Assembly (NCBI RefSeq): GCF_048403405.1
Contig: NZ_CP183129.1
DNA from: Escherichia coli
GTDB lineage: Bacteria; Pseudomonadota; Gammaproteobacteria; Enterobacterales; Enterobacteriaceae
DNA: 64,000 nt
Direction: 5' to 3' (one strand)
The notes beneath the pieces were generated by a model, which worked only from the letters and a program-made list of their open reading frames with translations, ran no database searches and was not told where the DNA came from. Positions 3,190 through 35,164 of this stretch are shown here, in pieces. Position 1 is the first letter of the stretch. Every line of letters starts with the position of its first letter. The translations under genes and the position numbers were made by a program.

Positions 3190-4059
3190 ATGGATCAGGC
3201 CGGCATTATTCGCGACCTTTTAATCTGGCTGGAAGGTCATCTGGATCAGCCCCTGTCGCTCGACAATGTAGCGGCGAAAGCAGGTTATTCCAAGTGGCAC
3301 TTACAGAGAATGTTTAAAGATGTCACTGGCCATGCTATTGGCGCGTATATTCGTGCTCGTCGTTTGTCGAAATCGGCGGTCGCACTACGCCTGACTGCGC
3401 GTCCGATTCTGGACATCGCGCTGCAATACCGCTTCGACTCTCAACAGACATTTACCCGCGCATTCAAGAAGCAGTTTGCCCAGACTCCTGCACTTTACCG
3501 CCGTTCTCCTGAATGGAGCGCCTTTGGTATTCGCCCGCCGCTACGCCTGGGTGAATTCACTATGCCAGAGCACAAATTTGTCACCCTGGAAGATACGCCG
3601 CTGATTGGTGTTACCCAGAGCTACTCCTGTTCGCTGGAGCAAATCTCTGATTTCCGCCATGAAATGCGTTATCAGTTCTGGCACGATTTTCTCGGCAACG
3701 CGCCGACCATTCCGCCGGTGCTCTACGGCCTGAATGAAACGCGTCCGAGTCAGGATAAAGACGACGAACAAGAGGTATTCTATACCACCGCGTTAGCCCA
3801 GGATCAGGCAGATGGCTATGTACTGACGGGGCATCCGGTGATGCTGCAGGGCGGCGAATATGTGATGTTTACCTATGAAGGTCTGGGAACCGGCGTGCAG
3901 GAGTTTATCCTGACGGTATACGGGACGTGCATGCCAATGCTCAACCTGACGCGCCGTAAAGATCAGGATATTGAGCGATACTACCCGGCAGAAGATGCCA
4001 AAGCGGGAGATCGCCCAATTAATCTGCGCTGTGAACTGCTGATTCCGATCCGTCGTTAA
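3190..4059 (+). CDS. rob: AraC/XylS-family transcriptional regulator Rob
   Basis: 289 aa, N-terminal AraC HTH and C-terminal GyrI-like domain; conserved position next to creA. Confidence 0.93.
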   Translation: MDQAGIIRDLLIWLEGHLDQPLSLDNVAAKAGYSKWHLQRMFKDVTGHAIGAYIRARRLSKSAVALRLTARPILDIALQYRFDSQQTFTRAFKKQFAQTPALYRRSPEWSAFGIRPPLRLGEFTMPEHKFVTLEDTPLIGVTQSYSCSLEQISDFRHEMRYQFWHDFLGNAPTIPPVLYGLNETRPSQDKDDEQEVFYTTALAQDQADGYVLTGHPVMLQGGEYVMFTYEGLGTGVQEFILTVYGTCMPMLNLTRRKDQDIERYYPAEDAKAGDRPINLRCELLIPIRR

Positions 4060-31296: not shown

Positions 31297-32883
31297 TTAA
31301 TGCTCGCGGGTCTGGTGGAACTGAACGTCCGGATAACGTTCCTGCGCCAGGCGCAGGTTGACCATGCTGGTAGCGATGTAAGCGAGGTTATCGCCGCCAT
31401 CAAGCGCCAGTTGGCTTTCGTTCTTACGCTTGAACTCTTCGAATTTCTTCGCGTCCGCACATTCTACCCAGCGGGCAGTGGCAACGTTGACTGACTCATA
31501 CACTGCTTCAACGTTGTATTCGCTCTTCAGACGCGCTACCACCACATCAAACTGCAGCACACCAACCGCACCAACGATCAGATCGTTGTTGGAGATCGGA
31601 CGGAACACCTGCACTGCGCCCTCTTCGGAAAGCTGTACCAGCCCTTTAAGCAGCTGTTTTTGCTTCAGCGGATCTTTCAGGCGGATACGACGGAACAGTT
31701 CCGGCGCGAAGTTCGGAATACCGGTGAACTTCATCATCTCACCCTGGGTAAAGGTGTCGCCGATCTGAATAGTGCCGTGGTTATGCAGGCCGAGGATATC
31801 GCCCGGATACGCTTCTTCAACGTGCGAACGGTCACCCGCCATAAAGGTCAGCGCGTCGGAGATCACCACATCTTTCGCAGTACGCACCTGGCGCAGCTTC
31901 ATGCCTTTTTCATATTTACCGGACACCACACGCATAAACGCCACGCGGTCGCGGTGTTTCGGGTCCATGTTGGCCTGAATTTTAAATACGAAGCCTGTAA
32001 ATTTGTCTTCGCTCGCCTCTACGGTACGGGTATCAGTCTGACGCGGCATCGGCGCAGGTGCCCACTCCACCAGACCATCCAGCATATGATCGACGCCGAA
32101 GTTACCCAGCGCAGTACCAAAGAATACCGGAGTGATTTCGCCCGCAAGGAACAATTCTTTGTCGAACTCGTTAGACGCGCCTTTCACCAGCTCCAGTTCA
32201 TCACGCAGCTGCTGCGCCAGATCTTCACCAACCGCAGCGTCGAGATCCGGGTTATTCAGCCCTTTAACAATACGGACTTCCTGAATGGTGTGGCCTTTAC
32301 CGCTCTGATAAAGATAGGTTTCATCTTTATAAAGGTGGTAAACGCCTTTAAACAGCTTGCCGCAGCCAATCGGCCAGGTGATCGGTGCGCAGCCGATTTT
32401 CAGCTCGTTCTCAACTTCATCGAGCAGTTCCATCGGGTCGCGGATATCACGGTCAAGTTTGTTCATAAAGGTGAGGATCGGCGTATCGCGCAGACGGGTA
32501 ACTTCCATCAGCTTGCGGGTACGATCTTCAACACCTTTTGCGGCGTCGATAACCATCAGGCAGCAGTCCACCGCCGTCAGGGTACGATAGGTATCTTCCG
32601 AGAAGTCTTCGTGCCCCGGGGTGTCGAGCAGGTTAACCAGGCAATCGTGATACGGAAACTGCATCACAGACGTAGTAATGGAGATCCCACGCTGCTTTTC
32701 CATCTCCATCCAGTCCGACTTAGCGTGCTGGTTGGAACCACGGCCTTTTACTGTACCGGCGGTCTGAATGGCCTGTCCGAACAGCAGCACCTTCTCGGTG
32801 ATGGTAGTCTTACCGGCGTCTGGGTGAGAAATAATTGCAAAGGTTCTTCTTTTCGCTACCTCTGCGGCCAAAAGGCTTGTCAT
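31297..32883 (-). CDS. prfC: peptide chain release factor 3 (GTPase)
   Basis: 528 aa, G1 motif [20 protein letters not shown]; start at [15 protein letters not shown]. Confidence 0.93.
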
Positions 32884-33038
32884 AATTGTTGTCTCTTTGA
32901 TTATGTACAATCATATGTACAAAGAAAAATTCATGCCGCTGATTGTACATTTTGGAGGTATCAGAGCATAGCAGAACATGATCAGTAGGTGTATTTGTAG
33001 CCAAAGAACATTTGTACATGCAGCAATCTTTGTTCCAT

Positions 33039-33067
33039 TGACACTGTTTATTCATACAGTTAAAAAT
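33039..33067 (+). promoter_or_regulatory. sigma70-like promoter for the dinI-like gene
   Basis: TTGACA (33039-33044), 17-bp spacer, AAAAAT (33062-33067). Confidence 0.5.
33045..33060. promoter_or_regulatory. LexA box 1 (SOS box)
   Basis: CTGTTTATTCATACAG fits CTGT-N8-ACAG; lies in promoter spacer. Confidence 0.65.
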
Positions 33068-33071
33068 AACA

Positions 33072-33087
33072 CTGTATACAAACACAG
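33072..33087. promoter_or_regulatory. LexA box 2 (SOS box)
   Basis: CTGTATACAAACACAG fits CTGT-N8-ACAG; 16 bp upstream of dinI-like ATG. Confidence 0.7.
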
Positions 33088-33102
33088 TGTAGAGGGATTT
33101 TT

Positions 33103-33351
33103 ATGCGTATTGAGATCTGCATAGCCAAAGAGAAAATGACTAAAATGCCAAACGGTGCTGTGGATGCGTTAAAGGAAGAATTAACTCGACGCATCAGTAA
33201 GCGTTATGACGATGTAGAGGTGATCGTAAAAGCCACCAGCAACGATGGCCTTTCTGTTACGCGCACCGCCGATAAAGATTCAGCTAAAACTTTTGTTCAG
33301 GAAACTCTGAAAGATACCTGGGAGTCTGCTGACGAGTGGTTTGTTCACTAA
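33103..33351 (+). CDS. DinI-family protein (prophage-borne DinI homologue)
   Basis: 82 aa [31 protein letters not shown]...[11 protein letters not shown]; C-terminal WESADxWF motif as in DinI. Confidence 0.85.
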
Positions 33352-33417
33352 TTAACACGTAAAATCGGTAACGGCTGGAAATCATTCAATACTCGCACTA
33401 TCGGAAGTTCACCAGCC

Positions 33418-33460
33418 AACCGCAGCACGTTCTTGCATACGACGTGTCTGCGGTTTTTCA
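33418..33460 (+). terminator. probable intrinsic terminator after dinI-like gene
   Basis: Imperfect stem CCGCAGCACGT...ACGTGTCTGCGG followed by TTTTTC. Confidence 0.5.
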
Positions 33461-33777
33461 ACCATTCAGATACAGCACTCTCATCACATTCATTCTTCCG
33501 CATTAAAGTATATATGACCATATCACCTTAATATTTTTCTTCTTCAGATAAAAATTGTTATCTATGTATACTTTTAAACCGAATCCGTGTAGAGTCTCTA
33601 CCTAAGTTAGTTCACAGCTACCCCTTCAGTTTGCGCCATTAACTTCCTGACTTTTGCCGCTATCTGTAAGCATTCCTGTATACCTGAAACTACAGGGTTC
33701 ATCTACGAACTTTAAGAACACCCAGGATAAAAATTGTCAACTATATTATATATAACACCATACTAATTCGAGGCTAT

Positions 33778-33891
33778 ATGGACAGCATACTGATAATCAC
33801 TTCACTACTTATCATATTCAGCATTTTTAGTCATGCTCTAATAAAATTAGGGGTTGGCATATCCAATAACCCGGACAAAACCGATGTATAA
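33778..33891 (+). CDS. unlisted 37-codon ORF encoding a hydrophobic peptide (hypothetical small membrane protein)
   Basis: GAGG 4 nt upstream of ATG; [37 protein letters not shown]: one predicted TM helix plus polar tail; too short for the ORF track. Confidence 0.35.
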
Positions 33892-33959
33892 GTCAACATA
33901 TCCTGAATCAGACATACAATATTGCAATGAAAACCAATAATATTTTAAGGAATATCTTC

Positions 33960-34193
33960 ATGAAATCAAATGACACCCTAAAGTGGTTCCCCGCGCAGCT
34001 TCCTGAAGTCAGAATTATCCTGGGAGATGCTGTCGTGGAAGTGGCAAAACAGGGAAGACCTATCAATACCAGAACATTGCTTGATTACATTGAAGGAAAC
34101 ATAAAGAAAAAGTCATGGCTGGATAACAAAGAATTATTACAAACAGCGATATCAGTTCTTAAAGACAACCAAAATTTAAATGGTAAAGTGTAA
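33960..34193 (+). CDS. YdfK/YnaE-like prophage protein (so-called cold-shock-induced family; function unknown)
   Basis: 77 aa from MKSNDTLKWFPAQLPEVRIILG..., AAGGA RBS; recalled similarity to Rac/Qin ynaE/ydfK, which sit beside pin genes. Confidence 0.6.
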   Translation: MKSNDTLKWFPAQLPEVRIILGDAVVEVAKQGRPINTRTLLDYIEGNIKKKSWLDNKELLQTAISVLKDNQNLNGKV

Positions 34194-34573
34194 TAAACAC
34201 CCCCTGAAAAATAATTTTTCAATGCATTAAAAAATATCAACAACTACGTTATTCCGCAACAACCTACTTTTTTTACCATTTTTCCACTTTAACAACTTTT
34301 TGCTCCACTTTTCCAAGACCAAACAAATTGAAATCTGGCTAAAACAACATACAACACTATTATTCGTCTTTCTCGAGTCCGCCCGGAGTTCGAAAAACAA
34401 ACCGAGTTAAAGCCATTTTTCAAAAAATCGATTTTAGGTTACACCAAAATTACGGGACTGCATCCAAATTTGTTTATTTTCGAACGTATACATACAAATA
34501 TGTGCAATAATAAGCGAAATAATTTTTGGATATGCATTATGATATGTACACCAATTTCGTATAGAGTCTCACT

Positions 34574-35164
34574 ATGTCTCGAATTTTTGCTTACTGTCGG
34601 ATATCAACTCTGGATCAGACCACCGAAAATCAACGCCGGGAAATCGAAAGTGCAGGCTTTAAAATCAAACCTCAGCAAATAATCGAAGAACACATTAGCG
34701 GCTCAGCAGCAACCAGTGAGCGTCCTGGTTTTAACCGGTTGCTTGCTCGCCTGAAATGTGGTGATCAATTGATTGTGACAAAACTGGATCGCCTTGGTTG
34801 TAATGCAATGGATATCAGGAAAACAGTGGAACAACTGACCGAAACAGGTATCAGAGTGCATTGCTTAGCATTGGGGGGCATTGACCTGACCAGTCCAACA
34901 GGAAAAATGATGATGCAAGTAATTTCAGCAGTCGCTGAATTTGAACGAGACCTTTTACTTGAACGCACTCATTCCGGGATAGTAAGAGCCCGGGGCGCAG
35001 GGAAACGTTTTGGTCGACCACCTGTGTTAAATGAAGAACAGAAACAGGTGGTATTCGAACGAATTAAGTCAGGTGTAAGTATAAGTGCCATTGCCCGGGA
35101 ATTCAAAACCTCGCGGCAAACCATTTTAAGAGCCAAAGCAAAACTTCAGACACCTGACATATAA
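34574..35164 (+). CDS. pin: serine recombinase, Pin-type DNA invertase (PinR/PinQ-like)
   Basis: 196 aa; catalytic Ser region [15 protein letters not shown] motif, C-terminal HTH. Confidence 0.88.

Follow-up and report, generated by a model that had tools for sequence, protein, structure and literature searches.

The 64,000-nucleotide stretch of Escherichia coli DNA analysed here (contig NZ_CP183129.1 of RefSeq assembly GCF_048403405.1; in its entirety, the window) carries, at the end of a lambdoid prophage, a 37-codon open reading frame (ORF) at positions 33778 to 33891, followed by the cold shock gene ydfK. This ORF is almost certainly an allele of ynaM/ynfT, a genuine gene for a small protein with a single transmembrane (TM) helix, and a gene that was already known. 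On DNA that is 100% identical, from strain YDC107, RefSeq annotates WP_123863255.1 as a 'YnaM/YnfT family protein', and then a 'cold shock protein YdfK'. A preliminary description of the window had listed the ORF as unannotated; this is true only of the ORF track used there, as RefSeq annotates the identical DNA and the YnaM/YnfT family is catalogued.

Curated family models support this identity. The peptide is matched by NCBIfam NF041477 with 60 bits, against a cutoff of 35, over residues 3-34, by Pfam PF23676 ('Protein YnaM-like'; E-value 1e-26) over residues 1-37 of a 37-position model, and by PHROG phrog_35882 (E-value 6e-21). No Pfam family other than this one is matched. As well as passing the curated threshold, the peptide has the family layout of helix and tail in about 37 residues, and its gene is sited upstream of a co-oriented ydfK/ynaE. 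An exhaustive search of representative proteins returned just four clusters, all of them close variants or truncations of the peptide, therefore the family as HMMER sees it is narrow. When the peptide was compared by tblastn with phages and plasmids, the 15-residue tail alone was matched and no records were added; it is probable that the TM helix was masked by the low-complexity filter.

Strain K-12 has two copies of the gene, ynaM (b4744) in the Rac prophage, upstream of ynaE, and ynfT (b4748) in the Qin prophage, upstream of ydfK. Their products are of equal length to that of the window and identical to it at 35 of 37 residues, the differences being N2D and I26V. The same Shine-Dalgarno (SD) sequence and the same 68-nt gap to ynaE or ydfK are present at the K-12 loci, where the neighbours are also alike, with a pin recombinase and tail-fibre genes at a lambdoid prophage end. 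Whereas the K-12 copies are in the cryptic Rac and Qin remnants, the window copy belongs to an apparently complete prophage in prfC, and here a DinI-like gene lies at the junction. The exact allele of the window is uncommon, with eight records at 99% identity or more, versus 2625 at 95-99%.

Most of what had been read from this sequence in the preliminary description is borne out: the coordinates, the ATG, the 37 codons, the GAGG, the AT-rich setting, the ATA and CTA codons, the position upstream of a YdfK-like gene (ydfK begins 68 nt on), and the single TM helix with a polar tail. In both the ORF and the surrounding 1.2 kb the G+C content is 35%, compared with 52% for the whole window. This composition would in itself give the rare codons in the ORF, of which there are five ATA and two CTA. 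The Kyte-Doolittle 19-residue maximum of the peptide is 2.52, at residues 4-22, and an AlphaFold model built on eight family variants has a single helix at residues 2-30 with a mean predicted local distance difference test (pLDDT) score of 85.5. The layout is a short N-terminus, a TM helix at about residues 4-22 (possibly to 28), and a conserved tail. The only basic residues are K23 and K34, both of which come after the helix, the N-terminus having none.

The length of the ORF is not evidence for a gene, because 66% of shuffles of the 608-nt spacer in which it lies hold an ATG-initiated ORF of at least 37 codons. As judged from sequence comparison, the reality of the gene rests on conservation instead. 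With ydfK as the anchor, 28 IMG/VR loci encoding a YdfK relative were fetched, and in all 22 of those with sufficient upstream DNA a 37-codon ORF is present 68-74 nt 5′ of the ydfK homologue. Among nine distinct nucleotide versions of the ORF there are 8, 6, and 18 variable columns at the first, second, and third codon positions, respectively, and the other two frames are full of stops. When the window is compared with two Salmonella-type versions, the proportion of synonymous differences (pS) is 0.56 and that of nonsynonymous differences (pN) is 0.09-0.13, for a nonsynonymous to synonymous ratio (dN/dS) of 0.09-0.14; against the more distant copy at locus L044, pS is 0.68 and pN is 0.19. These values indicate that the reading frame is under strong purifying selection. 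The preliminary description had named a lack of conservation of the frame in homologous prophage ends as grounds for rejecting the gene, and here the frame was found to be conserved, in the 22 loci and in L044.

Conservation centres on two adjacent genes. Identity between the window and the Salmonella-type loci is 42-51% in the upstream DNA (-218 to -21), 79-82% in the ORF, 66% in the spacer between ynaM and ydfK, 84-85% in ydfK, and 18-19% downstream of ydfK. As identity is high in both genes and low in the flanks, the conserved unit is a two-gene ynaM-ydfK cassette. The GAGG and its spacing are also kept in the Salmonella-type copies, where the surrounding 20 nt are just 50% identical. At L044, a YdfK homologue with 69% identity has a 39-residue YnaM copy 27 nt upstream. 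In two further loci (L042:2305-2424 and L043:688-807), a 39-residue ORF with the product MNFPGWIAIVLMIAFAGAGIVALVKIASQVSNNNDEKEP lies 76 nt 5′ of the gene for a YdfK homologue with 60% identity and adjoins tail-fibre assembly genes. This peptide has the YnaM layout and an SNN-D tail that can be aligned with that of YnaM (7 of 17 residues identical, pairwise E-value 3e-4). It was not detected by the NCBIfam YnaM model, and a tblastn search of phages with it had no match; it is probably a remote member of the YnaM family that falls outside the current models. Across homologues, the distance between the two genes is 27, 68, 73-74, or 76 nt. In the alignment of eight variants, A20, S29, N30, N31, and D33 are invariant, which indicates that the polar tail, and not mere hydrophobicity, is what selection keeps. 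Among the loci examined, no YnaM without YdfK was found.

Evidence of translation comes from K-12. Chromosomally SPA-tagged ynaM and ynfT were both detected by immunoblot, the Qin copy then being named ynfQ at the same coordinates, and both copies were positive in a tetracycline ribosome-profiling screen (VanOrsdel et al., PMC6001520). The K-12 protein is present at comparatively high levels, from its own locus, in exponential and stationary lysogeny broth (LB) cultures (10.1101/511675). Proteins near-identical to that encoded in the window are, in K-12, made in normally growing cells. For the allele of the window itself, purifying selection lends indirect support to translation.

Features of the ynaM-ydfK region of the window. 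Positions are those of the window; an empty cell indicates that no entry is available.
Feature	Position	Strand	Details
DinI-like gene	33103-33351		Between the prfC junction and the cassette; NCBIfam DinI E-value 3e-20, PHROG 189
Distal 19-nt direct repeat, GATAAAAATTGTTATCTAT	33547..33565	+	179 nt upstream of the proximal copy
Proximal 19-nt direct repeat, GATAAAAATTGTCAACTAT	33726..33744	+	Contains TTGTCA at 33734-33739; from repeat search
Shine-Dalgarno sequence GAGG of the ynaM-type ORF	33770..33773	+	4 nt before the ATG; read from sequence
ynaM/ynfT-family coding sequence	33778..33891	+	ATG to TAA, 37 codons; RefSeq, family models, dN/dS, AlphaFold
ynaM-ydfK spacer, 68 nt	33892..33959	+	Carries the ydfK Shine-Dalgarno sequence AAGGA at 33947-33951
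ydfK (cold shock protein YdfK, YnaE family)	33960..34193	+	RefSeq WP_000839978.1; homologues carry PF27475
Pin-type recombinase gene	34574-35164		After ydfK

Homology to K-12 ends 23 nt into prfC, at window position 32863; the integration site of the prophage is therefore the 5′ end of this gene, to which it supplies a new start. From the prfC junction, the gene order is the DinI-like gene, ynaM, ydfK, the Pin-type recombinase gene, and then the tail-fibre genes on the minus strand. In the related phage Tritos the DinI-like gene is absent, and the cassette is between the integrase gene and the pin and tail-fibre genes, which is an accessory region adjoining the attachment site. A holin or lysis role was considered for the peptide and dropped, as the gene is not near a lysis cassette and there is a single short TM helix.

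The gene is widespread in the species. Megablast of positions 33550-34200 against complete E. coli genomes matched 2805 records, and at least one copy of ynaM is present in 2786 of 5426 complete genomes, at 3333 places. From the ranked E. coli genomes, 40 were sampled at even intervals, and every one had the annotation. In addition, the cassette is found in 11 Escherichia phage records (2H10, mEp460_ev081, Tritos, Turner, Kati, HannyBb, and the PhiR-series) and in Salmonella phage 118970_sal3. Thus YnaM, beside a cold shock gene, is carried by roughly one in two complete E. coli genomes and by some phages. Several phage records (OV696610.1, LR595862.1/NC_049950.1, LR597641.1, PV340573.1, and PV340576.1) have no feature over the ynaM ORF, and in the Tritos record the ydfK coding sequence is instead extended upstream, to 267 nt.

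The partner gene encodes a protein for which a Pfam scan gave no match, PF27475 being listed in the precomputed annotation of its homologues, and for which a PDB sequence search with a YdfK profile found no solved relative. Its AlphaFold model is a small helical bundle (pLDDT 74). The only good PDB match to this model is YmgB/AriR (2oxl_A), with a TM-score of 0.84, normalised by target length, and a root-mean-square deviation of 1.7 Å over 59 columns. Comparison by hhalign with YcgZ/YmgA/AriR gave an E-value of 5e-4, at a probability of 32%, and a common LG-AV...G motif; the NCBIfam YcgZ match to YdfK has an E-value of 0.0098, far below the cutoff. YdfK/YnaE is plausibly an AriR-like two-component connector, the model superposition and the motif being suggestive of this and not establishing it. 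Similarity to YcgZ-YmgA-AriR(YmgB) is marginal at the sequence level. The ycgZ operon differs from the ydfK locus in having no YnaM-like gene annotated. The ycgZ-ymgAB genes are known to be induced at low temperature. This behaviour is common to YdfK: it and the YnaE protein become visible by top-down mass spectrometry after refrigeration (PMC5594050).

Upstream of ynaM, the two direct repeats have the consensus GATAAAAATTGT(T/C)A(T/A)CTAT. At the proximal copy, the core GATAAAAA(N)TTGT recurs in the equivalent position in the K-12 Rac and Qin prophages, phage Tritos, and some of the Salmonella-type loci, amid flanking DNA that cannot be aligned. At the distal position, an exact match to the core pattern is seen in the window and the identical strain only, and a promoter-like site, TTCAGA-18-TATACT (33543-33572), overlaps the distal repeat. 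The proximal repeat may be part of a promoter or an operator of the ynaM-ydfK cassette. Here TTGTCA and TATAAC were noted by hand inspection, with non-canonical spacing. No terminator-like sites were found in 33300-34600, hence there are none between ynaM and ydfK, and co-transcription of the two genes is therefore the simplest reading. Genomic SELEX (systematic evolution of ligands by exponential enrichment) identified the ydfI-ydfK and ynaE-uspF spacers as in vitro binding sites of the RNA polymerase sigma-70 holoenzyme, the second of these spacers being marked as H-NS bound (PMC3946193). In an RNA-seq data set, ynfT is increased 5.7-fold and ydfK 5.3-fold, along with cspB, cspG, cspI, and deaD (PMC13058169). 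Separately, the minus strand of the DNA that separates the DinI-like gene from ynaM gave a sub-threshold Rfam match to CssrB, a Shigella chromosomal small RNA (sRNA); this match, at 33421-33558, scores 24 bits, where the gathering threshold is 76 (E-value 0.027), and is probably due to chance.

Taken together, the best overall explanation, and a probable one, is that ynaM/ynfT encodes a single-pass inner-membrane protein that belongs to a prophage cassette with ydfK and works by binding a partner. The two genes would form a low-G+C accessory ('moron') cassette in the interval from the phage attachment site to the tail-fibre genes. A putative promoter immediately 5′ of ynaM would drive both as one transcript, with expression occurring from the prophage and increasing with the cold shock regulon. 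YnaM is predicted to be orientated in the inner membrane with its N-terminus out and its C-terminus in, because under the positive-inside rule K23 and K34, its only basic residues, both follow the helix. This would place the invariant tail (S-N-N-x-D) at the cytoplasmic face. In common with other bacterial small membrane proteins, YnaM could act through a bound partner and not through membrane damage; the most obvious candidate partner would be the co-encoded AriR-like YdfK or a host membrane protein to which YdfK signals. For YnaM specifically, this partner-binding, non-toxic mode of action is drawn by analogy and is put forward tentatively, with a probability well short of that of the explanation as a whole.

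Small membrane regulators such as AcrZ, MgrB, MgtS, PmrR, and CydX have fewer than 50 residues and a single TM helix, are made in normal growth, and are co-encoded with a functionally related gene. YnaM resembles this class in its size, its single TM helix, its production in normal growth, and its co-encoded gene. It differs from the class in that there is no sequence relationship, the gene is prophage-borne, and the conserved part is a polar juxtamembrane tail. The term 'small membrane regulator' would be the best description available for YnaM. A further suggestion, and an unlikely one, is that the YnaM tail docks with or regulates YdfK as a connector, the pair being a prophage two-protein module that couples cold to an envelope-stress phosphorelay such as Rcs. 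It is raised because the pairing is kept to remote homologues, the tail is invariant, and the predicted YdfK fold is AriR/YmgB-like. If it were true, the module would alter biofilm or envelope behaviour of lysogens.

A number of observations weigh against parts of this interpretation. A simple sigma-70 consensus scan called no promoter at the proximal repeat or next to the ORF; both the co-transcription of ynaM with ydfK and the position of the promoter are presumptive. The likeness of YdfK to AriR is modest, with a Foldseek E-value of 0.08 in addition to the low hhalign probability of 32%. In Enterobacter, some E. coli, and Limnobaculum, YdfK homologues (55-64% identity) occur with no YnaM-like ORF, therefore YdfK does not strictly need YnaM. 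The translation evidence concerns the K-12 alleles, distinguished from that of the window by the substitutions N2D and I26V, and was obtained with constructs tagged at the C-terminus. Weaver et al. (10.1101/511675) had no start-codon ribosome peak for ynaM with either retapamulin or Onc112. In this last case, just 3 nt, at ORF positions 24, 27, and 60, distinguish K-12 ynaM (L002:4294-4407) from ynfT (L003:2891-3004), and no difference occurs within the first 23 nt of the ORF or in the 40 nt or more that precede it. Start-codon reads would therefore map to both copies, and such multi-mapping may explain the absent ynaM peak.

Other explanations of the ORF were considered against the same evidence. 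The preliminary description had allowed that it could be non-coding, and an AT-rich leader with rare codons, in which shuffles so often reach this length, might well hold a chance ORF. Such an origin is ruled out by the conservation pattern and its probability is negligible: the frame is kept with a dN/dS of about 0.1 across E. coli, Salmonella, and distant copies, and variation is mainly at third codon positions, whereas the non-coding DNA on either side cannot be aligned; moreover, curated hidden Markov models match the peptide and the K-12 protein has been detected. The same description had likened the architecture to that of type I toxins. Toxins of this type (Hok/Gef, Ldr, TisB, ShoB, Ibs, and DinQ) are small hydrophobic single-TM peptides, often on mobile DNA. 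YnaM is also a small hydrophobic single-TM peptide on mobile DNA, in a prophage, and in its size and its one TM helix with a polar tail resembles the Hok, Ldr, TisB, and ShoB-type toxins; as such, its synthesis would cause depolarisation of the inner membrane, and an sRNA, antisense or encoded nearby, together with an mRNA fold that blocks translation, would normally keep it in check. Neither an antisense RNA nor a structured blocking leader was found by sequence scans and folding, which an unconventional RNA might escape. The sense RNA (33745-33985) has a minimum free energy of -29.9 kcal/mol, compared with -33.9 ± 4.4 for shuffles (z +0.91), so it is no more stable than these, and the SD and AUG of the ORF are unpaired in the centroid structure. 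The antisense RNA fold has a z of +0.17. An Rfam search (E-value up to 1) over 33000-34700 had no match on the ORF, and the region has no terminator. A minus-strand promoter-like site (33969..33942) could in principle give an antisense transcript, but no such site is present at the equivalent position of the Salmonella-type locus L018 or of L044, and the promoter-like sites in 33300-34600 are at chance frequency (5 found, 4.8 expected). The only Pfam match is to the YnaM family, PADLOC gave no match, and the most conserved part of the peptide is its polar tail and not merely hydrophobicity. Unlike tightly repressed toxins, the K-12 protein accumulates and is detectable in growing cells, in both exponential and stationary LB cultures. 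It is very improbable, then, that YnaM is a type I toxin.

A comparably low probability attaches to the ORF being a regulatory upstream ORF or leader peptide, the translation of which, through its ATA and CTA codons, would adjust how well the ydfK mRNA is translated or how stable it is, at low temperature for instance, with the peptide as a by-product. The ORF is in the leader of a cold shock gene with no terminator between them, ynfT and ydfK rise together, and ATA is still frequent in the Salmonella copy as well as occurring five times, with two CTA codons, in the window. Yet it is the peptide on which purifying selection acts (dN/dS about 0.1): replacements in the helix are conservative, and the SNN-D tail is invariant as far as the remote L042 homologue; in K-12 the peptide accumulates as a stable protein, and the rare codons fit a G+C content of 35%. 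In addition, ydfK begins anywhere from 27 to 76 nt beyond the ORF in different homologues and keeps an SD sequence of its own, and no stable structure joins the ORF to the ydfK start. A secondary effect of ynaM on ydfK through translational coupling would be compatible with these data. Small membrane exclusion proteins are encoded near the tail genes of other lambdoid phages. YnaM might likewise be a lysogenic-conversion factor, a membrane peptide that blocks DNA entry by competing phages or their receptor or transport protein, which would suit an accessory position flanked by the attachment site and the tail-fibre genes, expression from prophages in uninduced cells, and retention in deposited phage genomes. 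However, no PADLOC defence family was matched by YnaM or YdfK at E-values up to 0.1, and the match of the remote L042 peptide to the TrbK entry-exclusion family (E-value 0.053, 13.9 bits against a cutoff of 50) is at noise level. Tight pairing with a soluble AriR-like protein and co-regulation with cold shock genes are also atypical of exclusion genes, and a role in phage exclusion is considered improbable, if slightly less so than the toxin or leader peptide.

The ORF is therefore a catalogued gene, and neither a new toxin nor an RNA element. The pairing of the two genes beyond the current family models, together with the AriR-like predicted fold of YdfK, provides a concrete hypothesis, with a pay-off that would be incremental and limited to one prophage accessory cassette.

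At L037-L040 (E. coli and Limnobaculum) and L034-L036 (Enterobacter), the loci that lack a YnaM-like ORF, other genes are seen near the YdfK homologue. In L037, L038, and L040, from E. coli and Limnobaculum, a divergent gene of the YnfU family of zinc-ribbon small proteins is about 130 nt upstream of the YdfK homologue, and in the Enterobacter (L034-L036) and E. coli YdfK loci a GH94 glycoside hydrolase gene is downstream. The YnfU-type pairing represents a different recurring small-protein partner for the YdfK family.

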